Assembly: GCA_031425695.1 (NCBI GenBank)
Contig: JANPJV010000076.1
Span: forward strand, 3,261 to 67,260
DNA from: Rhodanobacteraceae bacterium
Lineage (GTDB): Bacteria > Pseudomonadota > Gammaproteobacteria > Xanthomonadales > SZUA-5
Reading direction: 5' to 3'
DNA: 64,000 bases
Shown here: positions 1,169 to 60,901 of the stretch, one piece after another
How positions within the stretch are numbered: the stretch's first letter is position 1
Layout of the letters: each line of letters starts with the position of its first letter
Made by a program: the position numbers and the translations under genes
The notes under the pieces: model-generated
Seen by the model: only the letters and a program-made list of their open reading frames with translations
The model's database searches: none
What the model was told of the DNA's origin: nothing

Positions 1169-2449
1169 TTAACCCGCGATATGCGGGGATTTCTTTAGGT
1201 TCGTGACGTTCGCTCCAGATGCAGGCACGACAGCGAGGAAGCCGGACCACGCCTCCATCAGTTGCCGGCGCTTGGCCAGTAGGTCACCACGGCGATACGC
1301 CGCCTCAACCTTGCTCTTGATTGCGTGCGCGAGCGCCATTTCGATGACGTCGCTGGTAAAGCTTGTGCGCTCGGCCGCCCAGTCTCGGAAAGACGAACGG
1401 AACCCGTGAACGGTGAGCTCCGTGAATCCCATATCGGTCTGCAGCAACTTGCGCGCACTCTCGGGGTTCATGTGCGTGCGTCCGCGCTGGCCAGGGAATA
1501 GGAACGCGCCTTTCTTGGGCAGCTCGCCGAGCATTTTCAGTGCCGGCTTGGAGAGCACTACGCGATGCTCGCGATTGGCCTTCATGCGCTCGGGCGGAAT
1601 CGTCCACACGCCGCCGTCCAAGTCGAACTCCGACCAGCGCGCGGCGGCCGCTTCGCCCACGCGGGTCACGCAGAGAATGACCAGCTCGAGCAGGCGGGCA
1701 CTGAACCCGACGCGGGCCCGCAGTAGCGCCATGAAGGCCGGGAGATCGGTGTAGGCCATGGCGGCCTGATGGGTCACCTTGCTGACCTTGGATTTCTCCG
1801 GCAGCAGCACGTCCAGGTGGCCGCGCAGGCGTGCCGGGTTGTCGCCGAAACGGAACTCACGAGCGGTCGCCCAATCGAGCACAGCCTCTATGCGCTGGCG
1901 CACGCGGCTGGCCGTCTCGGTCTTGGTCTTCCAGATTTCCTGCAGTGCCTTGACTACGAGCGCCGTGCTGACGTCCTGGACCGGGAGCGGCAGCAGGTCG
2001 GCGGCGTAGGTGTCGAGTGTCGAGCGCCATTGCGCCCGGTGCTTCGCATTGCGCCAGGTCGATTCGTGCGCCTCGATGTACTTTTCAGCGCACTGGCCGA
2101 ACGTCATCAGCTTGGCCTTCGCGAGCTTGGCGTCGGTGCGGGCCTGTTTCTTCTCGTCACCCGGGTCGCGACCTTCTCGCAGCACCAAGCGGAGTTTGTC
2201 GGCGTCCTCGCGAGCTTTCTTCAGCGGTACGTCATCGAGTGAACCGAGCCCTATTTCACGCACGCGGCCGTCTCGGCGATCGCGGTAGCGGAACAGCCAA
2301 GACTTTGTCACATGACCCACTTCGGACGCCGAAGCGGCGACGTTGAGCACCAGATTGCCGCCGTCGGCATACCTGCCCGGAAGATTCAAATTTCGAATCA
2401 TCAACGGACTAAGGCGATCTCTGATGCGCTTCGGCACGTTCCCCCACAT
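1169..2449 (-). CDS. int: tyrosine recombinase / phage-type (P4-like) integrase
   Basis: The N-terminus reads LNLPGRYADGGNLVLNV...KSWLFRY (DUF4102-like arm-binding region). The C-terminal catalytic region contains HGFRSSFRDWAAE and LAHAIKSKVEAAYRRGD. The ORF track starts at GTG 2473; ATG 2449 (MWGNVPKRIRD) fits family N-termini better. Confidence 0.9.
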   Translation of the reverse strand: MWGNVPKRIRDRLSPLMIRNLNLPGRYADGGNLVLNVAASASEVGHVTKSWLFRYRDRRDGRVREIGLGSLDDVPLKKAREDADKLRLVLREGRDPGDEKKQARTDAKLAKAKLMTFGQCAEKYIEAHESTWRNAKHRAQWRSTLDTYAADLLPLPVQDVSTALVVKALQEIWKTKTETASRVRQRIEAVLDWATAREFRFGDNPARLRGHLDVLLPEKSKVSKVTHQAAMAYTDLPAFMALLRARVGFSARLLELVILCVTRVGEAAAARWSEFDLDGGVWTIPPERMKANREHRVVLSKPALKMLGELPKKGAFLFPGQRGRTHMNPESARKLLQTDMGFTELTVHGFRSSFRDWAAERTSFTSDVIEMALAHAIKSKVEAAYRRGDLLAKRRQLMEAWSGFLAVVPASGANVTNLKKSPHIAG

Positions 2450-2622
2450 CCTTACCTGCACTGCTTCCCACACAAATTACGCTGGTTTCAGATGGGCGTC
2501 AATGGGGCGCGTTGGCGCGAGTGCTAGCGGTAGCAAACAGAAATGTAGCCATGACAGCTAGTTACGGTGCGGGTTGTGTGGGTTTTAGTGGTCGCCAGTG
2601 GGCAAAAGATTAGGCGGACACC

Positions 2623-2910: not shown

Positions 2911-3651
2911 CTACTCGACTGGATAAACCGCCGCAATGGCGCAGCCGTAGCGGTCCGCCGGCGTTTCAAAGCGTCCGGCCCTGTCGGCGTCGGTGGCTGA
3001 GGACAACACCGCCACATCCCCGGGGTGCCCGCATACGAGGTCGAGCCCGACACCCGAACGCAGGGTCAGCGAGGACTGGTATGAGACCTGAGGGCAGGAA
3101 TTCGCAAACTCGATCCGATAGCGGCTGTTTCCGCCCGATCGCCGTTTACCGGTCTCCACGACGATGCCGGAGCCGTCCTCCGACCAGCCCCGGACTTGGC
3201 TCGGGCGCAAACAGTAGTCGTACGAGCCGCGAAAAGTTTGTTTGTCCGAGCGTTTGCCGACGGCTTCGACCGGCGCCAGCAGTTGCGCTTCAGCCAACTT
3301 GGCGTCGGCGCTCCGGGCAAGGCTTGCGTACTCACGTGTAGTCAGTGTCCGCACTGCGAAGATCGGGCAAAGCTCGGTTCGCGTTCTGACGAACTCGCGT
3401 GGCCCGCCGCAAACCCATCCGTGCGTCGCCAGGAACGCGGCGTCGGTGGCCGCATCCGGACACGCACCTCCAAATTGCACCTGATGGCGCGACGTCTCTG
3501 TAGCCACCAGCAGCCGGTCCGGCGTCAGCTGGCGAACGCTCGAAACCTCGCGTGCATCCAGGCATTCCGCATCGGGCGCAGGCATGCGCTCGGGCACCTC
3601 AGCTGCGGCGGCGTGGATCCAGGCGAGTGCGACCATCGATAACGAATTCAT
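2911..3651 (-). CDS. secreted hypothetical protein with two similar Cys-containing halves
   Basis: The start at MNSLSMVALAWIHAAAAE is signal-peptide-like and is preceded by caggag. Both halves share a C...C..C spacing pattern. Possibly a tandem DUF-type domain; unverified. Confidence 0.6.
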   Translation of the reverse strand: MNSLSMVALAWIHAAAAEVPERMPAPDAECLDAREVSSVRQLTPDRLLVATETSRHQVQFGGACPDAATDAAFLATHGWVCGGPREFVRTRTELCPIFAVRTLTTREYASLARSADAKLAEAQLLAPVEAVGKRSDKQTFRGSYDYCLRPSQVRGWSEDGSGIVVETGKRRSGGNSRYRIEFANSCPQVSYQSSLTLRSGVGLDLVCGHPGDVAVLSSATDADRAGRFETPADRYGCAIAAVYPVE

Positions 3652-3828
3652 TGGGGCTCCTGAATTTTGAATGGGCCAGTGGGACACGGGGCATCACTGT
3701 TTAGCTCGTCGGAAGGCGTTGGCATCGATCAAGACAGCAGAGCAGGGACATCGGCAGAACGTAGCTCGTTCATGTTCGGCTCGAGCCTACATACGTGAAT
3801 TGAAGGGAGAGCATCGGAATGCTTCCCT

Positions 3829-3842
3829 TTGACGCAGATCAA
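3829..3842. promoter_or_regulatory. FNR/ANR box TTGACgcagATCAA upstream of hemN
   Basis: Matches TTGAT-N4-ATCAA in 9 of 10 positions. Its centre lies 41.5 bp upstream of the hemN ATG at 3877. Confidence 0.7.
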
Positions 3843-3876
3843 GACGCGCCCAGCATCAGCGGGCCACACTGCCCGC

Positions 3877-5271
3877 ATGCCAGCCATCGCCTTCAGCCCC
3901 GAGCTCCTGCGTCGCTACGACCGCCCAGGTCCACGCTATACCTCGTATCCGACGGCACCGCAGTTTCGCGGTGACTTCGGAGAAGACGAGTTGCGGGCCG
4001 CCGCGCTCGCCAGCAATGGCGACCCGATTCCCCGGCGGCTTTCGATTTATGGGCACATGCCGTTTTGCGTGAGCCCATGTTTTTACTGTGGCTGCAATCG
4101 AGTGATCACCCGGGATGTCGCGCGCGGCGAGCAGTACATCGAGCGCCTGTGCGAGGAGATCGATCTCACCGCGCCACTGTTCGATCGCGACCGCGAGGTG
4201 GTGCAACTGCATCTCGGCGGCGGCACGCCCAATTTCTTCACGCCCGCGCAGATCGGTCGGCTGCTGTCGCGCCTGCGCGAGCGTTTCAGCTTCGCAGCGG
4301 CGGCGGATCTGGAGTGTTCGATCGAGCTTGATCCGCGCTTCATCACGGCGGACGAAGTCCACGCGCTCGCCGCTGCAGGCTTCAACCGGGCCAGCCTCGG
4401 CGTGCAGGATTTCGATCCCGCGGTGCAGGAGGCGATCAATCGGGTGCAGGGCATCAAGGAGACCCGTGCGATCGTGGATGCGTGTCGCGCCAGTGGCATG
4501 GGGTCGGTCAACATCGATCTCATCTATGGGCTGCCACGCCAGGAACGCGAGAACTTCCGGCGCACGCTGGAAACGGTCATCGAGATGCGACCTGACCGCC
4601 TCGCCATCTATGGCTACGCACACATGCCGAAGCTGTTCAAGGCGCAGAAGCAGATCGAGGCTGAGGAGTTGCCGTCCGCCGAGGAGCGTCTCGCGTTGTT
4701 GCAACTGGCGATCAGCGAACTCGGCGCGGCCGGCTATCACCATATCGGGATGGATCACTTCGCACTGCCGCACGATGATCTCGCGCAGGCGCTCGAGCGC
4801 GGTTCGCTGCAGCGCAATTTCATGGGTTATACGACCCACGCGCAGACCGACCTGATCGGGCTCGGCATCAGTGCGATCAGCCAGATCGGCGATACCTACA
4901 GCCAGAATCCGCGTGACCTCACTGGCTGGCAGGGCGCGGTCGAGAACGGCCGGCTGCCGGTATTCCGCGGCATGCGCATGAGCGGCGACGACCAGTTGCG
5001 TGCCGATGTCATCCAGCAGCTGATGTGCCAGGGCGAAGTCTTGATCGCGCCGCTCGAGCGCCGCCACGCCATCGCTTTTCGCTCCTATTTCGCGGATGCG
5101 CTCGCGCGCCTGGCCCCTTTGGTGGCGGACGGCCTGGTGAATGTCCGCCACGACCGCATCCGGGTCAGCGGGCACGGGCGCCTGCTCCTACGTAATATCG
5201 CCATGTGCTTCGACCGTTATCTCGACCAGCCCGTGGCGATCTTGCCACCCTCCTTCTCCCGTGCCATCTAG
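3877..5271 (+). CDS. hemN: oxygen-independent coproporphyrinogen III oxidase (radical SAM)
   Basis: Contains GPRYTSYPTAPQF and the radical-SAM motif CVSPCFYCGC, at HemN length. The ORF-track TTG at 3829 is actually the FNR box, so ATG 3877 is used. Confidence 0.93.
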   Translation: MPAIAFSPELLRRYDRPGPRYTSYPTAPQFRGDFGEDELRAAALASNGDPIPRRLSIYGHMPFCVSPCFYCGCNRVITRDVARGEQYIERLCEEIDLTAPLFDRDREVVQLHLGGGTPNFFTPAQIGRLLSRLRERFSFAAAADLECSIELDPRFITADEVHALAAAGFNRASLGVQDFDPAVQEAINRVQGIKETRAIVDACRASGMGSVNIDLIYGLPRQERENFRRTLETVIEMRPDRLAIYGYAHMPKLFKAQKQIEAEELPSAEERLALLQLAISELGAAGYHHIGMDHFALPHDDLAQALERGSLQRNFMGYTTHAQTDLIGLGISAISQIGDTYSQNPRDLTGWQGAVENGRLPVFRGMRMSGDDQLRADVIQQLMCQGEVLIAPLERRHAIAFRSYFADALARLAPLVADGLVNVRHDRIRVSGHGRLLLRNIAMCFDRYLDQPVAILPPSFSRAI

Positions 5272-5284
5272 TGCGAGGGTGGCT

Positions 5285-6037
5285 GTGAGCGCGCCGGCGT
5301 TCCCGCGCAGCGACGTGCGCATTCTCGCGGACGATGGCGACGCCCTGCATTTCTGCTCGACCTGTGCGTTCTCGCAAGCCTGTATCGCCGAGGGCATGCA
5401 CAAGCACGCACTGCTCGATCTGCATGTGCTGGTCGAGCACGTCGGCCCGCTGCACGCCGGGGAACACATCTTTCGCGAGGGCGACCCGTTCGTCGCGATT
5501 GCCGCGGTGCGCGCTGGCACCGTCAAGACCTATGTGATTGATCCGAACGGCGAGGAACAGGTACTCGGCTTCCATTTTCCAGGTGAGGTCATCGGCCTCA
5601 GCGCGATCGATGGCGACCGCTTTCCGTGCAGCGCGGTGGCGCTGGACACGGTCATGCTCTGCCGCTTCTCATTCCAGAAGATGGCACTGCTGGCCACCCG
5701 CGTCCCCGGCCTGCAGCGCCAGCTCTTTCGCCTGCTCAGCCGCGACATCGGCCGCGCTACGCTGCTCGCCGGCGACTGGGCCGCCGACCAGCGTATGGCG
5801 GCTTTCTTGCTGGCCATGTCGCGGCGCCTCTCCGAACGTGGTTTTTCCGCAGTGCGCTTCCAGCTGACCATGGCACGCACCGATATCGCCAATTACCTGC
5901 GCCTAGCCCCCGAAACCGTCAGCCGCGTGCTGCGGCGCTTTCAGGACGACGGGCTCCTGGTCATCGAGCGCCGCGAGGTGGAGATCGTCGACCAGCCCAG
6001 GCTGAATGCGTTGGCGGGGCCGGTGTTGCGGGATTAG
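5285..6037 (+). CDS. fnr: FNR/ANR-type oxygen-sensing Crp-family regulator
   Basis: Has the N-terminal Cys cluster CSTCAFSQAC (C-x2-C-x5-C) plus the central Cys in FPCSAVA, a cNMP-like fold, and the HTH ETVSRVLRRF. The start is uncertain (GTG 5285 or GTG 5315). Confidence 0.85.
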   Translation: MSAPAFPRSDVRILADDGDALHFCSTCAFSQACIAEGMHKHALLDLHVLVEHVGPLHAGEHIFREGDPFVAIAAVRAGTVKTYVIDPNGEEQVLGFHFPGEVIGLSAIDGDRFPCSAVALDTVMLCRFSFQKMALLATRVPGLQRQLFRLLSRDIGRATLLAGDWAADQRMAAFLLAMSRRLSERGFSAVRFQLTMARTDIANYLRLAPETVSRVLRRFQDDGLLVIERREVEIVDQPRLNALAGPVLRD

Positions 6038-9011: not shown

Positions 9012-10241
9012 ATGAACGAATCTACGATCCCTGTCGCCCCACCACTTTCGCTCCGCCTGCTCGGCGCCGCCCCGCATCGTCTGCTGTTCTTCATCGGCGC
9101 GAGCAATCTGCTGCTGGCGATGGCTTGGTGGGCGGGCTGGCTGGTGGCACGACGCGCCGGCATCGTCATGGAAAGCCCGGCGCTGGCAGCAGGCTGGCTG
9201 CATGCCTATGTCATGCAGTACCAGATGCTACCGAGCTTCATCTTCGGATTCTTGCTGACTGTTTTTCCCAGATGGATGGGATTGCCCGAGCTGCAGCGCT
9301 GGCGCTATGCGCCGGTCGGCATCGGGCTCTTTGGTGGTCAGGTCGCGACCTTGCTCGGTGCGGTCGGTTGGGAGGCGGGCATCACCGTCGGCTGGTGGAT
9401 GAGCCTGGCGGGTTGGATTTCCGGCCTGGCCGCGCTGCTGCCGCTGCTGTGGCGCGAAACCGGCAAGACCTGGCACGCGCGCTCATGCGCCCTCGCGCTC
9501 GTCCTGGGACTGTTCGGCCTGGTCTGTCTTGGCGCGTTCCTGCACGGCGCGCCGGCCCTGTGGCTGTTCTCCAGTATCAAGATCGGCAGCTTTGGATTGC
9601 TGCTGCCGATCTACCTGACCGTTGCGCATCGCATGTTTCCGTTCTTCGCGTCGAACGTGGTGACCGGCTATGTTGCGTGGCGACCGCTGTGGCTGCTTGG
9701 CGCGTTCTGGGGGCTGTGCCTGCTGCACCTGGTGCTGGAACTGGTACACGCCTACCAATGGCTGTGGGCTAGCGACCTGCCGCTGCTCGGACTGTCGCTG
9801 TTGGCCTGCTGGCGCTGGTGGCCGCGTGGTCCGCAACCAGCGCTTCTACGCGTGCTCTTCCTTGGGTTGTTGTGGCTGCCCATCAGCTTCGCGCTGTATT
9901 CATCGCAAACCTTGATCTACCTCTTCACCGGCATCTTTGCGCTCGGCCGTGCCCCCGCGCACGCGCTGTTCGTCGGCTTTTTCGGCAGCGTGCTGGTGGC
10001 GATGGTCACGCGGGTGACGCAGGGACATTCAGGCCGGCCCTTGAGCCTGCCACCGATAGCAGTCTTTGCGTTCGCGGCCATCCAGGTCGTCGCCGTGCTC
10101 CGCGTCGGTGCCGAGCTCATGAAAGACGGGCCGCTGTGGCAGGCGGTCGCGGCGGTCGGCTGGCTGATCGCCTTGGGGCCCTGGGTGGCGTGGCTGGGTG
10201 GCATTTATCTGCGCGCGCGTGTTGATGGGAAACCGGGATAA
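9012..10241 (+). CDS. nnrS: NnrS family membrane protein (NO-response heme/copper protein)
   Basis: N-terminus reads APHRLLFFIGASNLLLAMAWW. It is polytopic, about 400 aa, and sits next to the NO reductase. Confidence 0.8.
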   Translation: MNESTIPVAPPLSLRLLGAAPHRLLFFIGASNLLLAMAWWAGWLVARRAGIVMESPALAAGWLHAYVMQYQMLPSFIFGFLLTVFPRWMGLPELQRWRYAPVGIGLFGGQVATLLGAVGWEAGITVGWWMSLAGWISGLAALLPLLWRETGKTWHARSCALALVLGLFGLVCLGAFLHGAPALWLFSSIKIGSFGLLLPIYLTVAHRMFPFFASNVVTGYVAWRPLWLLGAFWGLCLLHLVLELVHAYQWLWASDLPLLGLSLLACWRWWPRGPQPALLRVLFLGLLWLPISFALYSSQTLIYLFTGIFALGRAPAHALFVGFFGSVLVAMVTRVTQGHSGRPLSLPPIAVFAFAAIQVVAVLRVGAELMKDGPLWQAVAAVGWLIALGPWVAWLGGIYLRARVDGKPG

Positions 10242-29793: not shown

Positions 29794-32700
29794 CTAAGCG
29801 ATACGGACGCGGCTCCGGGTTGTCCACCAACGGCCCACCAGCTTGCGCAACTCGCTGTACCACAGGACGGTACTCGCCATTCCCATGCAAACCAACCACT
29901 GGCTCAAGTCCAACGGCACCGTTCCGAAGGCGCGATTAAGAAAGCCGAGGTTGACGACGGCGATTTGCAGCAGCAGCGAGAGCGCGATCGCCGCCCATAG
30001 CCAGGGGTTGGAGAACGCTCCGGCGAATGCGCTCACGGTCTCGGAGCGCGCATTGAAGGCGTTGAACAGGTGCGCGAGCACCAGCACCGTGAAGCCCGCG
30101 GTGCGCGCCGTGGCCAAATTCTCCGACCCGTCGATGAGTCCGCCGGATAGATAGAAGTCCATCGTCAGCAAGCTCACCAGCGCGACCACCAGGCCAATTT
30201 GAATGACGCCAGACCACATCGCCAAGTCAATCACCCGTTCGGTCAGCGGTCGCGGCTTGCGCGCCATGACGTCGTCGGTCGGTGGATCGACACCCATGGC
30301 CAGCGCCGGCCAGGAATCGGTCACCAGGTTGATCCACAGGATCTGGGTGGCGAGCAGCGGCAGCACGACTTCGCCGCCGCCACTGGAAAGGCCGATCACC
30401 CCGGCGCCGACAACCCCGAGAAATACCGTCAGCACCTCACCCATGTTCCCGGAGAGCAAGTAGCGCAGGAACTTGCGGATGTTGTCGACGATGCCGCGCC
30501 CTTCACGCACCGCCTCGACGATGGTGGCGAAGTTGTCGTCGACCAGGATCATCTTGGCCGCTTCCTTGGTTACCTCGGTGCCGGCAATGCCCATGGCGAT
30601 GCCGATGTCCGCGGATTTGAGCGCCGGTGCGTCGTTTACGCCGTCGCCGGTCATGGCGACGATGTTGCCATCGGCCTGCAAGGCATCGACGATGCGCAAT
30701 TTGTGTTTCGGTGCCACGCGCGCGAACACCGACGTCGCCCGCACAGCATCGGCGAACGCGGCCTCGTCCAGCGCATCCAGCTCAGGCCCGGAGAGGGCGG
30801 CCGCCCCGGCATCGACAATGCCGAGGTCGGCCGCGATGCGCGCGGCCGTGCGCGGATGATCGCCGGTGATCATGATCACGCGAATGCCCGCCCGGCGCGC
30901 TTCGCGGATGGCCGCCGCCGCTTCCTGACGTGGCGGATCGATGATCCCCACGGTGCCGACGTAGATGAGCGCGTGCTCCAGCGCCTCGCCCGGCGCGATT
31001 TCCTCGCCGGCCGTGAGCGGCCGGTAAGCCACGCCCAGGGTGCGCAGGGCCGCGTCGGAAAGGGCCGCCACCTCGCTGAGGATGCGTGCCCGCGCGGCCT
31101 CGTCGAGAGCGACCACGTCGAGCCCTGAACGCACCTGCGTGCAGCGTTCGAGCAAGACGTCCGGGGCGCCCTTGGCGATCAGCACGGTAGTGTTGCCGTG
31201 TTCGTGATCGACCTCGATGGTCGACATCATCTTGCGATCCGAGGTAAACGGGATCTGCGCCATGCGCGTGAAGCGCTGCGCGCGCCGCTCGGACACGCCG
31301 AGCTTGCGTTCCGCCACCAGGAACGCAACTTCGGTGGGATCGCCGTGGATTTCCCACTGGCCATCCTGGCCCTCGCGCAGCTCGGCATTGCCGGCCAGGC
31401 TGCCGCCACTCAGCATCACGATCTGCTCGGCGTGCAGGTCGCCGCTTTCGAGCTTGGCCCCGGCGAGCTCGACCTGCCCGGCGGGTGCGTAACCGACTCC
31501 GGTCACGGCGGTGCCACCTGAGGCAGTCAGTATCTGCACGATGGTCATCTCACCGCGGGTCAAGGTGCCGGTCTTGTCCGAGGCAATGACCGAGGCCGAC
31601 CCCAAGGTCTCCGCCGACGACAGCTTCTTGACGATCGCATGGTGTTTGGCCATCCGCTGCACGCCGAGCGCCAGCACCACGGACAGAATCGCCGGCAGGC
31701 CTTCAGGCACGGCTGCCACTGCCAATGACACGCCGAGCAGCAAGGCGTCGATGACATCGGCAATGCTGCGGCGGTCGGAGAGCAGCAGCACTGTCGCAAC
31801 CACGATGACCGCAATGATCAGCACCGCAACGCCCAGCATGCGGCCGATGTGCGCGATCTCCTTCTCGAGTGGCGTCGGCTCCTCGACCGTCGCTTCGAGC
31901 ATCTGCGCAATCGAGCCGACCTCGGTGTCCATCCCGGTCGCGGTGACCACGGCGCGGCCGGTGCCTTGCGCGACGGCAGTGCCCTTGAACAGCATGTTCA
32001 GCCGATCGCCGAGTGGCACCGACGCGGCAAGCGTCGCCGCATCCTTGAGCACGGCCTCGCTCTCGCCGGTCAGCGCCGCTTCCTGCACGCGCAAGGCGGT
32101 CGCTTCAATCAGCCGCGCATCGGCGCCGACCGCGTCGCCTTCGCCAAGGACCAGCAGGTCGCCGCGCACCAATTCCGCGCTCGGCACGCGCAGCAACTTG
32201 CCGTCGCGCATCACTGCCGAGGTGGCCTGGATCATGCGTGCCAACGCCGCTACCGCGTCGGCGGCCTTGGCCTCCTGCACAAATCCCAGAACGCCGTTGA
32301 GCAGCACGATTGCCGCGATCACCGTCGCATCCACCGGCCAGCCGTGCCGGCCTTCGATCACCCACGCCACCACGGCGATCACAATCGCGGCCAGCAGCAG
32401 ATAGATCAGCGGGTCCTGGAAGTGCGCCAGCACGCGGCGCCAGGTCGCCAGCTTCGCCGCAGCACGCAATTCATTCGGGCCATTTTCCGCCAGCCGACGT
32501 GTCGCTTCTTGCGCCGTCAGGCCGTTCTCGAGATCCGCGGCGTGCTGGGTCGCAACTGCCTGCGCATCTTTGAGGGAAGGATCGTCGGCTGCGGGTTTGG
32601 CGGCCGCCGACTGCACCCTCGGCGGCTTCTTTGGAGCGGCGGCGGTGGCAATTGCGGAGGGTGCCGCTGCAGCATTGGGTCCGGCGACGGCAGGCGTCGC

Positions 32701-33087
32701 GGCCGCTTCGACCACCGGAACGGCGGCATGCGCGTTCGGGGTGGCATTCGATGGTGCGTCTGTGGGGAGCGCTCGCGCCTTTGGCTGCGGCGCCGCTGCA
32801 GCGGCTTCCGGCCGCGGAACGACGGACGGATCGCCAGCAGCGGGCACGGCTGTCGCAGTCTTCGTATCTGGCTCGGGAGCGTCCGCGGCGGGGGCGTCCG
32901 GGATGTGCGCTGAAGACGCCTTCGCCGCTGGGTCCGCCTCACATTCCCGCTGGCGTACCGCGGATTTGATGGCGCCGACTTCCAGCCGGGTTTCGTCGTA
33001 GCGCACGGTGGTGCTCCTGGCGGCAAAGTTGACGGGGACGCTCTCGACACCCGGCACCTCACCGATGCGCCTCTCCACCCCATCCAT
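29794..33087 (-). CDS. P2-type (Ca2+/Mg2+-like) cation-transporting ATPase with an N-terminal degenerate HMA-like domain and an Ala/Pro-rich linker
   Basis: Contains DKTGTLT, TGDGVNDAPALK, MITGDHP and 10 TM helices. The N-terminus reads MDGVERRIGEVPGVESVPVNFAARSTTVRYDE without CxxC, followed by about 150 aa of A/P-rich sequence. Confidence 0.85.
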   Translation of the reverse strand: MDGVERRIGEVPGVESVPVNFAARSTTVRYDETRLEVGAIKSAVRQRECEADPAAKASSAHIPDAPAADAPEPDTKTATAVPAAGDPSVVPRPEAAAAAPQPKARALPTDAPSNATPNAHAAVPVVEAAATPAVAGPNAAAAPSAIATAAAPKKPPRVQSAAAKPAADDPSLKDAQAVATQHAADLENGLTAQEATRRLAENGPNELRAAAKLATWRRVLAHFQDPLIYLLLAAIVIAVVAWVIEGRHGWPVDATVIAAIVLLNGVLGFVQEAKAADAVAALARMIQATSAVMRDGKLLRVPSAELVRGDLLVLGEGDAVGADARLIEATALRVQEAALTGESEAVLKDAATLAASVPLGDRLNMLFKGTAVAQGTGRAVVTATGMDTEVGSIAQMLEATVEEPTPLEKEIAHIGRMLGVAVLIIAVIVVATVLLLSDRRSIADVIDALLLGVSLAVAAVPEGLPAILSVVLALGVQRMAKHHAIVKKLSSAETLGSASVIASDKTGTLTRGEMTIVQILTASGGTAVTGVGYAPAGQVELAGAKLESGDLHAEQIVMLSGGSLAGNAELREGQDGQWEIHGDPTEVAFLVAERKLGVSERRAQRFTRMAQIPFTSDRKMMSTIEVDHEHGNTTVLIAKGAPDVLLERCTQVRSGLDVVALDEAARARILSEVAALSDAALRTLGVAYRPLTAGEEIAPGEALEHALIYVGTVGIIDPPRQEAAAAIREARRAGIRVIMITGDHPRTAARIAADLGIVDAGAAALSGPELDALDEAAFADAVRATSVFARVAPKHKLRIVDALQADGNIVAMTGDGVNDAPALKSADIGIAMGIAGTEVTKEAAKMILVDDNFATIVEAVREGRGIVDNIRKFLRYLLSGNMGEVLTVFLGVVGAGVIGLSSGGGEVVLPLLATQILWINLVTDSWPALAMGVDPPTDDVMARKPRPLTERVIDLAMWSGVIQIGLVVALVSLLTMDFYLSGGLIDGSENLATARTAGFTVLVLAHLFNAFNARSETVSAFAGAFSNPWLWAAIALSLLLQIAVVNLGFLNRAFGTVPLDLSQWLVCMGMASTVLWYSELRKLVGRWWTTRSRVRIA

Positions 33088-33169: not shown

Positions 33170-33183
33170 TTGATCTGGATCAA
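33170..33183. promoter_or_regulatory. FNR box TTGATctggATCAA (proximal to the ATPase)
   Basis: Perfect half-sites. The centre lies 89.5 bp upstream of the ATPase ATG at 33087. Confidence 0.75.
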
Positions 33184-33209: not shown

Positions 33210-33223
33210 TTGACCTGGATCAA
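33210..33223. promoter_or_regulatory. FNR box TTGACctggATCAA (distal)
   Basis: Near-perfect. Its centre is exactly 40 bp from the proximal box centre. Confidence 0.7.
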
Positions 33224-33532
33224 AGATCGAGTTCCCCGAACGGGATAAGTTGAAGCTTCAACAGCCCGTTTTCGGGAGAAGCGAATACGTCGCCAGCAAT
33301 CGCAACCAGCATTCGACCGCAAGCCATTCCCATCCGTTTGCGTCGGTCGCCGCGTATTTCCTTCTCAGCGAACACCGTGCGCACTTCCTCGGGGCACTGC
33401 CGTTCGTGCGGCTGCTCTCCTGCCCGCTAATGCAGGTCTTCATGCATCGCGGACAGCGGCCCGCCAGGGCAAAAGTTCCAGAGCGCTGATTGAGCGCGCC
33501 ATCTCGCAACAGCACCCTCCAAGGACCTGCCC

Positions 33533-34918
33533 ATGGAACGCGCCTTACGACCCACTCTGCAGTTCCTCGGCGCTGCCGGGACCGTTACCGGCTCACGCTA
33601 TCTGATCGAGGCGGCCGGCCAGCGCGTCCTGGTCGATTGCGGTCTGTTTCAAGGCTACAAACAGCTGCGCGAGCGCAATCGAGCCGAATTTCCGGTGCCA
33701 GCGGACACGATCGACACGGTCCTGCTGACGCACGCGCATCTGGATCATTCGGGCTATATCCCAGCGCTGGTGCGCGATGGTTTTCAAGGCAAGATCATTT
33801 GTACGCCAGCGACGCGTGAACTGTGTTCGTTGCTGTTGCCGGACAGCGGGCACCTGCAGGAGGAAGAAGCCAAGTTCGCCAAGAAGAAGGGCTTTTCCAG
33901 ACACGCCGAGCCGACCCCGCTGTACACCTTTGAAGATGCGCAGGCTTCGCTTGAGCAATTCGTTGTCCACGACTTCGAAAAAGAGCTTGAAGTGGGCCCC
34001 GCGCTGCGCGCGCGCTTCCTGCCTGCCGGCCACTTGCTGGGGGCGGCGCAGATCAGTCTGGACGTCGCCGGCACACGAGTGCATTTCAGCGGCGATCTCG
34101 GTCGCGTTCAAGATCCCTTGATGCGCCCGCCGAAACCCTTGGGCTCGGCGGATGTGCTGATCTGCGAGTCGACCTATGGGAACCGCAAGCACAAGCGCAT
34201 CGACTCCGAGGCGGAACTCGCGCCGATCATTCGGCGGGTTGCTGCGCGCAGCGGCGTCATCGTGATCGCGGCCTTCGCCGTGGGTCGCGCACAGGGGTTG
34301 ATGCTGCATCTCGCGCGCCTGCGCCAGCGCGGCGAGATTCCCGCAATCCCGGTTTACCTCAACAGCCCAATGGCAATCGACGCGACCGAGATCTATCACC
34401 GCTACCACCAAGAGCACCATGTCACTGTCGCCGAATGTCAGGCCATGTACGAACTGGCGACCATGGTGCGCAGCGTGGACGAGTCCAAGGCACTGAACTT
34501 GAGGGGTGGCCCGATGATCATCCTCTCCGCAAGTGGCATGCTGACCGGCGGACGCGTGCTGCACCATCTGGAGGCCTTTGGCCCCGATCCACGCAACGCA
34601 ATCCTGATGTCCGGCCACCAGGCCGGCGGTACCCGTGGCGCGCTCCTGGCAGGCGGGGCCGAGCGCCTGCGCATGTATGGACGCGAGGTGCCGATCCTGG
34701 CGGAAGTCGTGCAGCTCGAGAGCTTTTCGGGCCACGCCGATGCCGATGAAATCCTCACCTGGATGGGCGCGGCGAAAGCGCCGCCGCAGATCACCTACGT
34801 CACCCATGGAGAACCGGACGCCGCCGACGCGCTACGTGGGCGAATCAAGCACGAACTCGGCTGGGAAGCACGCGTACCCGAGCATCTGGAGCGCGTCGTT
34901 CTCGATGCGCGCAAGTGA
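33533..34918 (+). CDS. MBL-fold beta-CASP family hydrolase (RNase J/CPSF-like)
   Basis: Contains HAHLDHSGYIP, a beta-CASP-like middle region, and C-terminal SGHADADEI...VTHGEP. Confidence 0.8.
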   Translation: MERALRPTLQFLGAAGTVTGSRYLIEAAGQRVLVDCGLFQGYKQLRERNRAEFPVPADTIDTVLLTHAHLDHSGYIPALVRDGFQGKIICTPATRELCSLLLPDSGHLQEEEAKFAKKKGFSRHAEPTPLYTFEDAQASLEQFVVHDFEKELEVGPALRARFLPAGHLLGAAQISLDVAGTRVHFSGDLGRVQDPLMRPPKPLGSADVLICESTYGNRKHKRIDSEAELAPIIRRVAARSGVIVIAAFAVGRAQGLMLHLARLRQRGEIPAIPVYLNSPMAIDATEIYHRYHQEHHVTVAECQAMYELATMVRSVDESKALNLRGGPMIILSASGMLTGGRVLHHLEAFGPDPRNAILMSGHQAGGTRGALLAGGAERLRMYGREVPILAEVVQLESFSGHADADEILTWMGAAKAPPQITYVTHGEPDAADALRGRIKHELGWEARVPEHLERVVLDARK

Positions 34919-54101: not shown

Positions 54102-54812
54102 TCAATGCGCGGTCGCACCCGAGCTTGCCAGCTCCGACAGCGCCTGCGCATCCAGGATGCGAATCTCGCGGCGCGTGACATCCAGCAGGCCACGTTCGCG
54201 CAGGTGGGAGATTGCACGGGTGACGGTTTCGAGTTGCAGGTTAAGAAAGCTCCCGATCTCGGCGCGCGTCATGCGCAGGACGAAATGCGTCGCGCTGAAG
54301 CCGAGTGCGTGCAGGCGACGCCCGAGATCGAGCAGCAGCGTCGCCACGCGCTGTTCGGCGCCGAGCGTGCCGACCGACAGCAGCCACTGGCGCTCGGCGC
54401 GGACCTGGGCCGAGAGCTGCAGGGTCATCGCGGCCTGCAGCTCGGGCTGGCGCGCGGCCGCGGACATCAGGTCGCACATCGCGATTTCCCAGACTTCACT
54501 ATCCTCGAGCGCGAGCGCGTCACCCTCGTGGGTGCCTGCGCCGATCGACTCCAGCGCCAGCAGCTCGCCACGCAGGTGAAACCCGGTAACGCGTTCGCGA
54601 CCATCGCTCGAGGCGAGCACCGATTTGATGCAACCGGCATTGACGAAATAGACCGCGCGCAGCACTTGGCCGGCCCGATATAGCGCCTGGCCGGCACTGA
54701 TCCGGCGTCGCGCAAAGGCGACCGAGCGCTGCAGCAGCTCCTGGCTGATCCCGGCGGCAATCAGCGGCTGTGCCAGGGTGCGGACACTGTTGAGCGTGCG
54801 GGTAGCGAGCAT
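54102..54812 (-). CDS. Crp/Fnr-family regulator lacking the FNR Cys cluster (DNR/NNR-like)
   Basis: cNMP-binding fold plus the HTH ETVTRAISHLRERG, with no N-terminal cysteines. Confidence 0.8.
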   Translation of the reverse strand: MLATRTLNSVRTLAQPLIAAGISQELLQRSVAFARRRISAGQALYRAGQVLRAVYFVNAGCIKSVLASSDGRERVTGFHLRGELLALESIGAGTHEGDALALEDSEVWEIAMCDLMSAAARQPELQAAMTLQLSAQVRAERQWLLSVGTLGAEQRVATLLLDLGRRLHALGFSATHFVLRMTRAEIGSFLNLQLETVTRAISHLRERGLLDVTRREIRILDAQALSELASSGATAH

Positions 54813-57461: not shown

Positions 57462-57923
57462 TCAAGGCATCGACCGAGTGTGCCCACGGGCCGGCTCGAC
57501 TTGATTCGCGTCGATTTCCCCGGCGCCGCTTTGGCGCAGCGCGCCCACTTCGCCGCGCAAGCTCAGGATCTCGGTGCGCAGTTGGCCGATGGCATGCAGG
57601 AGGTCGCGCTCGATCTGGCGTTCTTCGGCCTGCACGAACATCGCGGCCACCGAGGCCGTGACCAGTGAGAGCACGGCCAATCCCAGCAGGACGACGAGCA
57701 CCGAAAACACACGCGATGCGAACGTGGTCGGGACGATGTCGCCGTAGCCCACCGTGGCGGCGGTGGTAAACGCGAGCCACAGGCCATCGCCGAAGCTTTG
57801 CGCGCTCGGCTCGATCAGCCAGAAACCCAGCCCGCCCAGCCCGAGGATCAACAGGCACAGGAGCAGCGGGTAGACCAGTCCGTTGCGGGTAATCAGGCGC
57901 TTGCGGTGCGGTGATCGTTTCAT
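57462..57923 (-). CDS. two-TM potassium channel
   Basis: Has the selectivity filter TVGYGD flanked by two TM helices, and a C-terminal coiled coil. Confidence 0.85.
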   Translation of the reverse strand: MKRSPHRKRLITRNGLVYPLLLCLLILGLGGLGFWLIEPSAQSFGDGLWLAFTTAATVGYGDIVPTTFASRVFSVLVVLLGLAVLSLVTASVAAMFVQAEERQIERDLLHAIGQLRTEILSLRGEVGALRQSGAGEIDANQVEPARGHTRSMP

Positions 57924-57957: not shown

Positions 57958-57971
57958 GTGATCCAGGTCAA
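57958..57971. promoter_or_regulatory. FNR-like box (minus-strand reading TTGACctggATCAC) upstream of the K+ channel
   Basis: One mismatch in the right half-site. The centre lies exactly 41.5 bp upstream of the channel ATG. Confidence 0.55.
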
Positions 57972-58141
57972 TTCGCGACCAAGCCGCGACCCCGGCGGGC
58001 CGGTGGCGCGCGTCGCGGCTTGAAGCCCTCGGAAAGTGACGTGGTAAGGGACAGGTCCTGACCATCCGGGTGCCGGAAGTTTTAAATATGCGCGTCAGGG
58101 TCTGAACGCCATGGCGGCTCAAGCGGGCGACCAGCCGTGAG

Positions 58142-58155
58142 TTGACCTCGATCAT
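58142..58155. promoter_or_regulatory. FNR box TTGACctcgATCAT upstream of the phosphoketolase-family gene
   Basis: The centre lies exactly 41.5 bp upstream of an in-frame ATG at 58190. Confidence 0.6.
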
Positions 58156-58372
58156 CTGGTCCATCCATTGGTTGCACTAAAGTGCCCGCATGTCTCGACG
58201 CCTGCGTCGGAGCAGGAAGGCTGCGATGCTTTTCCCGGCTCGCCGAAGAACCAGAACATCGCGGCCTTGGCTGCTGCCACAACTTCTCCCATCGGATTCC
58301 TCGCCGATCGCTGCGCGACATGACGCCGATAGCGGGATGTTCGAACTACTTTCCCCAGGATCGAGGAATTCC

Positions 58373-60901
58373 ATGACCGCAGCATCGGTGAGCGAGCACG
58401 TCGACACGCACGTCAGCGCGGCGACCAGTGACGATCTGCCTCCCGCCGTGCGGGTCGAGCTCGCGCACCGCGCCGCGCAACTGCGTGCGGCTGACGCGGT
58501 CTTTGCGTCCTGGGCGGCGGGCTACGGGTTGATCCAGCACGATGTGCTGACGCAAGTGCGTGTGTATTCGATGGTCCGAAGACTGGTCACCGACAACCAG
58601 GTCGTCGATGCTGCCACCGCCTATGCGCGGCTTTCCGCCGCCGATCGCGTGGCCAGTGCCGGCATGTGGCTGGTCGCGCACATGAGCTATGCCCAGCGTG
58701 TCCGGCTGGACGGGGGGCCGCTGGTGGCGGGGGACTTCAAGGCGAATCCCGAGGGTCACACCGGCGGTGCGCTCAACATGGTGCCGGCTTACGTCGCCTA
58801 TCTCGCCATGAACGCGCTCGACGGCCGCACGCGCAGCTGGATGATGGGGCAGGGCCATTGCGTGGCTGCTATCGATGCGCTCAACGTGCTGGTCGGCAAC
58901 CTGCATCCGGAACAGGCAGCCCGCTACCCGATGGACGACGCCGGACTCTCGCAACTGGCGTCGGATTTCTACGGTTACGCGATTGGCGCGGACGGCATGC
59001 CGTCTGCACCGCTCGGTAGCCACGTGAACGCGCATACCGCCGGGGGCACGCAGGAAGGCGGATATCTTGGCTTCACCGAGCTGCACTACGTGCATGCGCC
59101 ATTGCCCGGTGAGCGCCTGGTAGCCTTTCTCAGCGACGGCGCCTTCGAAGAACAGCGCGGCAGCGACTGGGCGCCTCGCTGGTGGCGGCCTGAGGACTCC
59201 GGAATGGTCGCGCCGATCATGATCTTGAACGGTCGTCGCATCGAACAACGGACGCTGATCGAGCAGCAGGGTGGCGAATCGTGGTTGCACCGACACCTGG
59301 AGCTCAACGGCTTCGAGGTTTTTGGCCTGGATGGGCGCGATCCGGCGAGCATGGCCTGGGGCATCCATGCAATGGAGGCGCGCCTGGGCGAACGCATTGC
59401 TGCAGTGCTGGCGGGGCGGCCGGATCCGACGCGTCGGCTCGGCTATGGCATTGCCGAGACCATCAAGGGTTTCGGGTTGCCCGGCGCGGGTGGTAATCGC
59501 GCCCACAACCTGCCGCTCGGTGGTAATCCGTCAAAGGATGTTGCTGCGCTGGAGGAGTTCAACGGCGCGGTCGCGCGCCTGCATGTTCCGGCGGTGGAGC
59601 TGCGCGCGGCGATCGTGGACCTGGCGACGCACGCCGAGCAGGCGCGGTCACTGGAGCGCGATCACGCGCTGGGCCGGCGTGACGTGGCAAGCCCGCATCT
59701 GCCAGCGCTCGAAGACGCGTCGAGCGCAAGCGATGGTTCGCCGATGGCCGCCCTCGATGTGCGCTTCAGCGCGATCCTGGCTGCCAACCGTCACTTGCGG
59801 GCGCGCATCGGCAACCCCGATGAGTTGCGCAGCAATCGGCTCGACCACACGCTCGACCTGCTGAAGCACCGGGTGTTCGAACCCGAGGCCGGCGTTGCCG
59901 AAGCGCGCGGCGGCGGCGTCATCACCGCCCTGAACGAAGAGGCCGTGGCATGCGCGGCACTGGGTAACAAAGGTGGCATCAACCTGGTCGTGACCTACGA
60001 GGCCTTCGCCCCGAAGATGCTCGGAGCGTTGCGCCAGGAAATCACGTTCGCGCGCCAGCAGCGGCAGGTCGGGCGCGCGCCGGGCTGGCTGTCAGTGCCG
60101 GTCGTGCTCACCTCGCACACCTGGGAAAACTCCAAAAACGAAGTCTCGCACCAGGATCCGACCCTGGCCGAGGCGCTGCTAGGCGAAATGGCCGACAGCG
60201 TCTCGGTGGTGTTTCCGCCCGATGCCAACGCCACGGTCGCGGCCCTCGATCACGCGTACAGCTCGCATGGGCGCATCGTGGCGATGGTCGTGCCCAAACG
60301 TGCCGTCGCCCATCGGCTGACTGTTGCGCAGGCGCAGGCGCTCGCGTCGCAAGGGGCGTTGACACTGATTCCGGCAACCGCAGCGGAGCAAGCACCGCGC
60401 CATCATGGCGCGGGCATCAGCGCGCCGCAGTTGCTGCTCGCGGCCAGCGGCGCCTACCAGTTGGCCGCAGCTGTGCGCGCGCATGCGCGCCTCAGCGAGC
60501 GTGGTATCCGCTGCGCGCTCATCGTGATCGGCGAGCCGGGGCGCCTGCGCACTCCGCGCGACGCGCTCGAAGCGCGCCACGTGCTCGATGATGCGGCGCT
60601 CGAGGAAATCTTCCCCACAGGCGTGCCGCGAGTGTTCATCACCCATACCCGCCCGGAGCCCTATCTCGGCGCGTTGCGGCGCATCGACAGCGGCCCGCAG
60701 ACGACGCGTGCACTTGGCTATATCAACCGCGGCGGCACGCTCACCGTCGACGGCTTGCTGTTCGCCAATCGCTGCAGCTGGGGACATGTGGTCGAGGCGG
60801 CGGGTGCGGTGCTGGGTCTTTCCAGCAGCAGCCTGCTCCGTCCCGACGAGCTGGCCGCGGTCCGCGGTGAGGGCGACCCAACGGTGTTGTGGCGAAGCTG
60901 A
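58373..60901 (+). CDS. phosphoketolase-family (TPP-dependent) enzyme, divergent
   Basis: The pattern FKANPEGHTGGALNMVPAYVAY...MMGQGHCVAAIDALNVLVGN...YPMDDAGLSQLASDF parallels the XFP N-domain (GHWGT..., GPGHGGPA...). The C-terminus reads LGYINRGGTLTVDGLLFAN. ATG 58373 follows AGGATCGAGGAA; the frame is open from 58190. Confidence 0.6.
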   Translation: MTAASVSEHVDTHVSAATSDDLPPAVRVELAHRAAQLRAADAVFASWAAGYGLIQHDVLTQVRVYSMVRRLVTDNQVVDAATAYARLSAADRVASAGMWLVAHMSYAQRVRLDGGPLVAGDFKANPEGHTGGALNMVPAYVAYLAMNALDGRTRSWMMGQGHCVAAIDALNVLVGNLHPEQAARYPMDDAGLSQLASDFYGYAIGADGMPSAPLGSHVNAHTAGGTQEGGYLGFTELHYVHAPLPGERLVAFLSDGAFEEQRGSDWAPRWWRPEDSGMVAPIMILNGRRIEQRTLIEQQGGESWLHRHLELNGFEVFGLDGRDPASMAWGIHAMEARLGERIAAVLAGRPDPTRRLGYGIAETIKGFGLPGAGGNRAHNLPLGGNPSKDVAALEEFNGAVARLHVPAVELRAAIVDLATHAEQARSLERDHALGRRDVASPHLPALEDASSASDGSPMAALDVRFSAILAANRHLRARIGNPDELRSNRLDHTLDLLKHRVFEPEAGVAEARGGGVITALNEEAVACAALGNKGGINLVVTYEAFAPKMLGALRQEITFARQQRQVGRAPGWLSVPVVLTSHTWENSKNEVSHQDPTLAEALLGEMADSVSVVFPPDANATVAALDHAYSSHGRIVAMVVPKRAVAHRLTVAQAQALASQGALTLIPATAAEQAPRHHGAGISAPQLLLAASGAYQLAAAVRAHARLSERGIRCALIVIGEPGRLRTPRDALEARHVLDDAALEEIFPTGVPRVFITHTRPEPYLGALRRIDSGPQTTRALGYINRGGTLTVDGLLFANRCSWGHVVEAAGAVLGLSSSSLLRPDELAAVRGEGDPTVLWRS

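Follow-up and report, generated by a model that had tools for sequence, protein, structure and literature searches.

Conserved promoter-to-start geometry suggests leaderless FNR-dependent mRNAs for hemN and a K+ channel gene in a Rhodanobacteraceae bacterium

A 64,000-nt stretch of contig JANPJV010000076.1 from a Rhodanobacteraceae bacterium (assembly GCA_031425695.1; this whole stretch is called the window below) contains three sites at which the centre of an FNR-type box and the A of an ATG are exactly 41.5 nt apart. The sites precede hemN, a K+ channel gene and a gene of the phosphoketolase family (referred to as the XFP gene). We consider it quite probable that hemN and the channel gene are served by class II FNR promoters whose transcription start coincides with the A of the initiation codon, yielding mRNAs with no leader, and that the ATG found at the corresponding position of the XFP site is fortuitous, this gene being translated from the ATG at 58373. 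The proposal builds on features that can be read directly, namely the geometry itself, its conservation, the absence of a Shine-Dalgarno (SD) sequence and the start codons set by homology. The first-pass annotation had suggested leaderless FNR-dependent mRNAs at all three sites; the idea is upheld by conservation at hemN and by three other lineages at the channel gene, and it is not supported at the XFP gene, where a relative has ACG in place of ATG.

Class II FNR promoters, as established for E. coli, place the site at -41.5 from the transcription start. Boxes were scored against the consensus TTGAT-N4-ATCAA, and each spacing given is the distance between the box centre and the first base of the ATG. 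The boxes of hemN, the channel gene and the XFP gene have 1, 2 and 2 mismatches, respectively, and recalculation of the coordinates on the sequence bore out the spacing of 41.5 nt at each of them. A further element, absent from the first-pass annotation, is a -10-like hexamer (TAnnnT or CAnnnT) found at -12 to -7 from that A at all three sites; the distance between the box centre and the first base of the hexamer is 29.5 nt in every case, as a class II promoter needs. Boxes with at most one mismatch number 10 in the window, against 0.75 expected, an enrichment of more than 10-fold. For boxes with at most two mismatches the figures are 30 and 10.4, so roughly one third of the two-mismatch boxes could be there by chance.

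The hemN box, TTGACGCAGATCAA (1 mismatch; 3829-3842, plus strand; centre 3835.5), is conserved in relatives. It is followed by the predicted -10 hexamer CACACT at 3865-3870 of the plus strand (-12 to -7 with the box at -41.5) and by the coding sequence (3877-5271, plus strand), with the A of the ATG at 3877 as the predicted transcription start. The product of 464 aa, an oxygen-independent coproporphyrinogen III oxidase, carries the Pfam domains Radical_SAM (PF04055, 4e-20) and HemN_C (PF06969, 1e-06), and its CVSPCFYC segment fits the CxxxCxxC pattern. This 464-aa form is on record, and homologues of 463-466 aa align with it at their N-termini. Between the upstream in-frame stop and the conserved GPRYTSYPTA motif, the only in-frame start besides ATG 3877 is a TTG lying inside the box. 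Judged from the frame and the alignments, ATG 3877 is the sole credible start of hemN.

Conservation was measured in a set composed of 80 metagenomic hemN loci and the two closest relatives, 79 of them non-redundant, which span 59-100% amino acid identity over the N-terminal 120 residues. At each locus the start nearest the N-terminus predicted by the alignment was used, the choice being made blind to the box. In 63 of the 79 loci a box with no more than two mismatches is found at 40.5-44.5 nt from the start set by homology; the spacing is 40.5 in 2 of these, 41.5 in 24, 42.5 in 31, 43.5 in 5 and 44.5 in 1. With the 63 loci aligned on the box, most of the 27-nt spacer shows no conservation (0.2-0.4 bit), the exceptions being T at +29.5 (31/63), A at +30.5 (55/63) and T at +34.5 (56/63), which make up the -10 hexamer at -12 to -7. 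As many as 55 of the 63 relatives have nAnnnT at this position. The start codon is ATG in 61 of the 63, and the base preceding it is C in 58; a pyrimidine at -1 and a purine at +1 form the preferred initiation dinucleotide. Named examples with a spacing of exactly 41.5 are Xanthomonas sacchari R1, whose annotated hemN start is that same ATG, and a metagenome-assembled genome of Thermomonas sp. Outside the clade (E. coli, Pseudomonas mandelii, Variovorax, Paraburkholderia, Neisseria gonorrhoeae), hemN has an SD-containing leader, is internal to an operon, or has its box much further upstream.

The four bases that follow the box in the hemN loci (L083-L164; positions +7.5 to +10.5, equivalent to -34 to -31) tend to read GGCG, with G in 44, G in 48, C in 47 and G in 41 of the 63. 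The window has GACG there (3843-3846 region). These bases could reflect what FNR prefers next to its box, or a contact made by region 4 of the sigma factor.

Duplex energies with the anti-SD sequence confirmed an earlier statement that hemN and the channel gene lack an SD sequence: the best values are -3.4 and -2.4 kcal/mol, respectively, as against -5.9 kcal/mol for the XFP ATG at 58373. The hemN relatives average -2.3 kcal/mol and show an SD core in 11% of cases, and the control, made of XFP-homologue starts of the same clade, averages -8.6 kcal/mol with an SD core in 91%. Minimum-energy folding leaves the predicted hemN and channel mRNAs unpaired at their 5' ends, though not to a significant degree. 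The conserved arrangement of box, -10 hexamer and ATG, the C-1/A+1 dinucleotide, the prevalence of ATG as start codon and the lack of an SD sequence thus strongly support reading hemN as a leaderless gene with a class II FNR promoter.

The channel gene (57462-57923, minus strand) encodes a protein of 153 aa from the two-transmembrane K+ channel family (Pfam Ion_trans_2). Its product is on record in exactly this form, and the N-termini of homologues (MKRLSPRKRLITR..., MKWQQRKRLITR...) agree with ATG 57923, the A of which is the predicted transcription start. The box, TTGACCTGGATCAC (2 mismatches; 57958-57971, minus strand; centre 57964.5), precedes a predicted -10 hexamer, TAGCGT, at 57935-57930 of the minus strand, with counterparts in three lineages. 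Relatives are designated here by locus numbers. In L192 (85% amino acid identity) the very same box stands 41.5 nt from the ATG with TACCTT as -10 hexamer; in L183 (81%) the box is ATGACCTGGGTCAA, again at 41.5, with TAGACT; and in the L165 group (76%) it is TTGACGTGGATCAA, at 42.5, with TAGGGT. All the TAnnnT hexamers of the relatives fall at -12 to -7 or -13 to -8 from the ATG. The leaderless class II FNR reading of the channel gene is therefore supported by three further lineages. The channel call of L192 (443-916, 157 aa) starts at an ATG located downstream of the FNR box but before the -10 hexamer; homology and geometry favour ATG 470 (148 aa), and position 443 is a probable mis-called start codon.

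In the mechanism that we favour, an FNR-type dimer bound at -41.5 would activate hemN and the channel gene from a weak -10 hexamer at -12 to -7, with no -35 element involved. RNA polymerase would start on the A of the ATG, at the C-1/A+1 dinucleotide, and the resulting mRNA, having neither a 5' leader nor an SD sequence, would be translated via recognition of its 5'-terminal AUG. Since fnr directly follows hemN, the two genes would constitute a positively autoregulated operon induced at low oxygen. The XFP gene would have the same promoter architecture and, behind a leader of 183 nt, would start translation at ATG 58373, which has an SD sequence. In this scheme we infer the position of the transcription start, the dependence on FNR and the mode of translation.

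Several points weigh against the scheme. The transcription start is deduced solely from the geometry of box and -10 hexamer under the spacing rules of E. coli. The -10 hexamer of hemN in the window (CACACT) is weak, and both boxes of the intergenic region between the channel and XFP genes have two mismatches. The exact value of 41.5 is not the conserved quantity among the hemN loci: a spacing of 42.5 (31 loci) is at least as common as one of 41.5 (24 loci), and for this reason a leader of 0-1 nt is the honest statement, a 1-nt leader being possible in the relatives with the 42.5 spacing. Within the window alone, the number of ATGs at offset 41.5 is not significant, as three or more ATGs are found at 9 of 100 offsets (60 box orientations, mean of 0.97 ATG per offset). 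The case therefore depends on true gene starts and on conserved geometry; what raises it above chance is that two of the three ATGs are homology-validated gene starts and that the arrangement recurs in dozens of related loci. Nor is a 5' AUG by itself proof of translation, because the FNR-dependent transcript FnrS of Neisseria gonorrhoeae, whose first three nucleotides are AUG, was found experimentally to be an untranslated small RNA (PMC3032703). FnrS is an apt caution and precedent for the ATG at 58190; the caution does not apply to hemN, where homology defines the ATG as the start. Lastly, the FNR geometry is seen in four channel lineages only, and three other channel loci (L173, L193 and L194) have no FNR box.

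Two of these three, L173 and L194, encode channels with an N-terminus of the MKWQQRKR type, and proteins similar to them are labelled Burkholderiaceae. Both loci display TACAGT (conserved TGTACAGTG) 6-8 nt before an ATG devoid of SD sequence; L193 has neither this feature nor the FNR box. The channel gene of L173 and L194 may be leaderless as well, under a different promoter. Because these loci keep TACAGT and an SD-less ATG without the box, the leaderless layout of the channel gene may be older than its control by FNR.

As to the activator, the most likely candidate is the [4Fe-4S]-type FNR encoded right after hemN. The fnr gene (5285-6037, plus strand; 250 aa; cNMP_binding, HTH_Crp_2 and Crp domains) lies directly 3' of hemN and begins with a GTG preceded by the SD sequence GAGGG. 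Its translation has an N-terminal C-X2-C-X5-C cysteine motif (CSTCAFSQAC), the Fe-S motif of FNR. The order hemN-fnr is kept in relatives, and the adjacency of a cysteine-cluster fnr to hemN in both the window and the relatives points to FNR as the ancestral partner of hemN. It is rather doubtful, by comparison, that the boxes are bound not by FNR but by a Dnr/NnrR-type, NO-responsive regulator, as part of a nitrosative or denitrification response. The setting would suit such a regulator, the neighbourhood being a denitrification island with a quinol-type nitric oxide reductase (qNor), a NirK-like protein, an azurin-type copper protein and NnrS, and the window has a second Crp-family regulator (54102-54812) whose translation is without the cysteine cluster of FNR. 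The TTGAT-N4-ATCAA core is common to the sites of FNR- and Dnr-type proteins, and hemN of Pseudomonas aeruginosa reportedly answers to both Anr and Dnr. The position of the cysteine-cluster fnr gene immediately after hemN, in the window and in relatives, argues against this alternative, as does the place of hemN among the core targets of Anr in pseudomonads (PMC6588701). Sequence alone does not separate the two regulators, and the cysteine-less protein could share the same sites; the choice between them would alter the identity of the activator, not the leaderless mechanism.

More improbable is the possibility that the spacing between box and ATG is coincidental, with the promoters or the transcription start lying well upstream and translation initiating internally without an SD sequence, for instance in an S1-dependent manner on an unstructured leader. 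The number of in-window ATGs at 41.5 is, as mentioned, within chance. Furthermore, a transcriptome study describes xanthomonads as having no clear SD consensus (PMC3300014), so that the absence of an SD sequence counts for little on its own. There is also another FNR-like box, TTGGCATCGATCAA (3719-3732), weaker than the main hemN box and 110 bp upstream of it. Without a start at the ATG, however, there would be no explanation for a spacing peak 1-2 nt wide in 55 of 79 independent hemN loci, combined with a -10 hexamer at a fixed distance and with the C-1/A+1 dinucleotide. The clade does use SD sequences elsewhere, as seen in 91% of the XFP-homologue starts and in fnr and norB of the window. 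A scan for sigma-70 consensus promoters found none competing at the hemN or channel locus, which is expected of activator-dependent promoters. The upstream box, for its part, is not conserved among the hemN relatives; it lies 74.5 nt from the start of a divergent gene for a hypothetical protein of 246 aa (2911-3651, minus strand), which it may serve.

At the XFP site, the box TTGACCTCGATCAT (2 mismatches; 58142-58155, plus strand; centre 58148.5) is followed on the same strand by the predicted -10 hexamer TAAAGT (58178-58183) and by a predicted untranslated leader of 183 nt (58190-58372) that begins with an in-frame ATG and has a non-coding composition. The SD sequence GAGGAA (58363-58368, plus strand) then leads to the XFP gene (58373-60901, plus strand; 842 aa; Pfam PF09364, XFP_N, and PF03894, XFP). 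The placing in this family rests on the domains; some homologues are named 'xylulose 5-phosphate 3-epimerase' in the sources. Querying proteins with the XFP N-terminus gave nothing but fragments of at most 72% identity, and the decisive relative, L192, came from the search with the channel protein. L192 is the closest relative syntenic with the window at this site. Its promoter, TTGATCTCAATCATCTTGTCAATCCAT...TACAGT, with the orthologous box TTGATCTCAATCAT, matches TTGACCTCGATCATCTGGTCCATCCAT...TAAAGT of the window, the hexamer being at an equal distance from the box in both. At the predicted +1, L192 has ACG instead of ATG. There the leader measures 22 nt (285-306) and brings a GAGGAA SD sequence to an ATG that matches 58373 of the window, in the same GAGGAA-N4-ATG arrangement. 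The window leader is thus about 161 nt longer (183 versus 22 nt), and the intergenic regions measure 449 and 185 nt, respectively. This orthology was read by eye, as the difference of about 161 nt in leader length caused a global alignment to misplace the XFP side. The XFP promoter is probably real, with a predicted start at about 58190.

Could the XFP gene itself be leaderless, with translation from ATG 58190 producing a protein of 903 aa whose N-terminus is extended by an Arg-rich stretch of 61 aa, either alone or beside the 842-aa form? The predicted start does fall on an in-frame ATG, and the 61 codons from there to the SD-led start contain no stop; moreover, the promoter geometry equals that of the other two sites, with TAAAGT as -10 hexamer. 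In addition, a 5'-terminal AUG is presented as the main determinant of leaderless translation in the Xanthomonas study (Brock et al. 2008, via PMC3300014). We nonetheless regard this outcome as very unlikely. The orthologous promoter of L192 has ACG and a 22-nt leader containing an SD sequence. GC contents by codon position are 0.59/0.64/0.57 in 58190-58372 versus 0.73/0.51/0.80 in the gene. The extension is found in no homologue; homologues start at around residue 10 of the 58373 frame, and in many of them a stop codon closes the frame within 50-100 nt before the ATG. Of the two forms, only the one of 842 aa is on record. By our estimate, an open frame of 61 codons is expected by chance about once in five at this composition. 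The N-terminal extension raised in the first-pass annotation was accordingly abandoned, and the alternative offered there, in which translation begins at ATG 58373, behind its SD sequence and 183 nt of leader, was retained. The ATG at 58190 most likely lies fortuitously at the beginning of an ordinary untranslated leader.

The 183-nt leader has no Rfam match, and its fold is not significant (z -1.3). XFP homologues from 80 genome loci are mostly internal to operons with no FNR box, and are uninformative on the promoter, though they do indicate the start of the protein; local searches of these loci found neither the channel gene nor hemN. Midway in the channel/XFP intergenic region, between the two boxes, the plus strand holds a hairpin that resembles a terminator and has a T-rich tail (58065-58087; TCCGGGTGCCGGA AGTTTTAAAT).

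The nearest mechanistic precedent for the favoured explanation of hemN and the channel gene is the cI mRNA made from the PRM promoter of phage lambda, the textbook leaderless mRNA of E. coli: a CI dimer sits at OR2 near -42 and contacts RNA polymerase, there is no good -35 element, and AUG comes first. The design shared with our case is that of an activator at about -42 and an AUG at +1. The differences are that PRM depends on another family of activators and operates a phage immunity switch, as opposed to a chromosomal hypoxia regulon conserved over many genera. Mycobacteria are rich in leaderless mRNAs, with the -10 element 6-7 nt before the start codon and no SD sequence. The same distance of 6-7 nt between the -10 element and an SD-less start codon is given for Deinococcus deserti in a study of that organism (PMC4007540). 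In those bacteria, however, the leaderless state is a genome-wide default, whereas here it would be gene-specific, other members of the regulon (norB, fnr and the XFP gene) using SD-containing leaders.

Class II FNR and Anr promoters (those of E. coli FNR, and of Pseudomonas Anr at hemN and arcDABC) share with the present sites a TTGAT-N4-ATCAA box over the -35 position and a -10 element at 29.5 nt. Also in common is that hemN is a classic FNR/Anr target (PMC6588701) and that an FNR with an Fe-S motif is encoded nearby. In contrast, those hemN genes of enterobacteria, neisseriae and Pseudomonas mandelii that were examined have an SD-containing leader or are internal to an operon, whereas here the start codon would be +1 itself. 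Within the same order, Lysobacterales, differential RNA sequencing of Xanthomonas campestris pv. vesicatoria 85-10 in aerobic cultures gave 14% leaderless mRNAs (leader shorter than 10 nt), 82% of which begin with AUG; this kind of mRNA was therefore already known in the order. The main text of that report mentions neither hemN nor FNR-dependent leaderless transcripts and does not draw a link between activator site and start codon (PMC3300014). Searches of the literature turned up no earlier account of a leaderless hemN, nor any of leaderless transcripts coupled to FNR or Anr. Leaderless mRNAs as such being known in xanthomonads, what appears to be new is a conserved, condition-specific case.

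In Gram-negative bacteria, leaderless mRNAs are mostly known from catalogues, with little idea of why given genes use them. Here, one well-understood, condition-specific activator would be tied base for base to the start codon. At hemN the arrangement has been kept over many lineages of Lysobacterales and their relatives, while neighbouring FNR targets keep SD-containing leaders. The hemN-fnr operon and the K+ channel gene thus offer a tractable pair for asking whether leaderless translation pays under oxygen limitation. A practical gain for this clade is that an FNR box lying 41.5-42.5 nt before an ATG is a reliable marker of the start codon in annotation; it corrects the over-long channel call of L192 and the longest-frame start of norB, and it warns against taking the ATG at 58190 as a start. 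A bolder idea, which we judge quite unlikely, is that the leaderless design defines a translational sub-regulon of FNR (hemN-fnr, the channel gene and perhaps nnrS) because initiation at a 5' AUG, of the 70S type, is favoured, or at least spared, when oxygen and energy are lacking. FNR's own synthesis and the supply of heme would then be secured before the SD-dependent members are expressed. In a weaker variant of this idea, two XFP isoforms, one from the leaderless and one from the SD-led start, would be made off one transcript.

The window (G+C content, 64.5%) contains, as judged from Pfam domains, an island for low oxygen and denitrification that starts beside a phage-type integrase (1169-2473, minus strand; Arm-DNA-bind_3/Phage_integrase). 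No tRNA genes were found in the whole window, and none adjoins the integrase. Besides hemN and fnr, the island comprises quinol-type norB, nnrS and genes for a NirK-like copper/cytochrome c protein, an azurin-type copper protein (Copper-bind domain), a COX1-family oxidase subunit, a P-type ATPase and the second Crp-family regulator, together with the divergent pair formed by the K+ channel and XFP genes. The closest protein relatives are from Lysobacterales (Rhodanobacter, Pseudoxanthomonas, Lysobacter, Thermomonas), with 69-71% amino acid identity.

The gene norB was considered as a fourth leaderless case and rejected: its true start is ATG 6339, behind GGAGAG and about 19 nt from the predicted transcription start. 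The start of the longest open reading frame, ATG 6312, falls in the -10 region of the gene's own predicted promoter, and it is the comparison with L083 that gives ATG 6339. Longer leaders follow the FNR promoters of the azurin, COX1 and ATPase genes. With leaders at these four genes and an SD sequence at fnr, the leaderless layout would be specific to certain genes, not common to all FNR targets.

The nnrS gene lacks an SD sequence in the five loci in which it was seen (5/5; the window gene is at 9012). In L085 (4687-4738), a box, CTGACCTGGATCAA, stands at 42.5 nt and the same geometry of box, -10 hexamer and ATG is found; it is found again in L097 (about 4670-4731), with a three-mismatch box, TTGACCCAGGTCAT, at 41.5. 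The nnrS gene of the window has no recognisable box. From these loci, nnrS is a possible third family of leaderless FNR/Dnr targets. Finally, two strong FNR boxes located 40 bp apart (33170-33183 and 33210-33223, with 0 and 1 mismatch, respectively) lie in the divergent region between the P-type ATPase gene (29794-33087, minus strand) and a small open reading frame (33214-33489) followed by a beta-CASP gene (33533-34918). With CTAGGA and ATAAGT as plausible -10 hexamers, they look like class II promoters arranged back to back.

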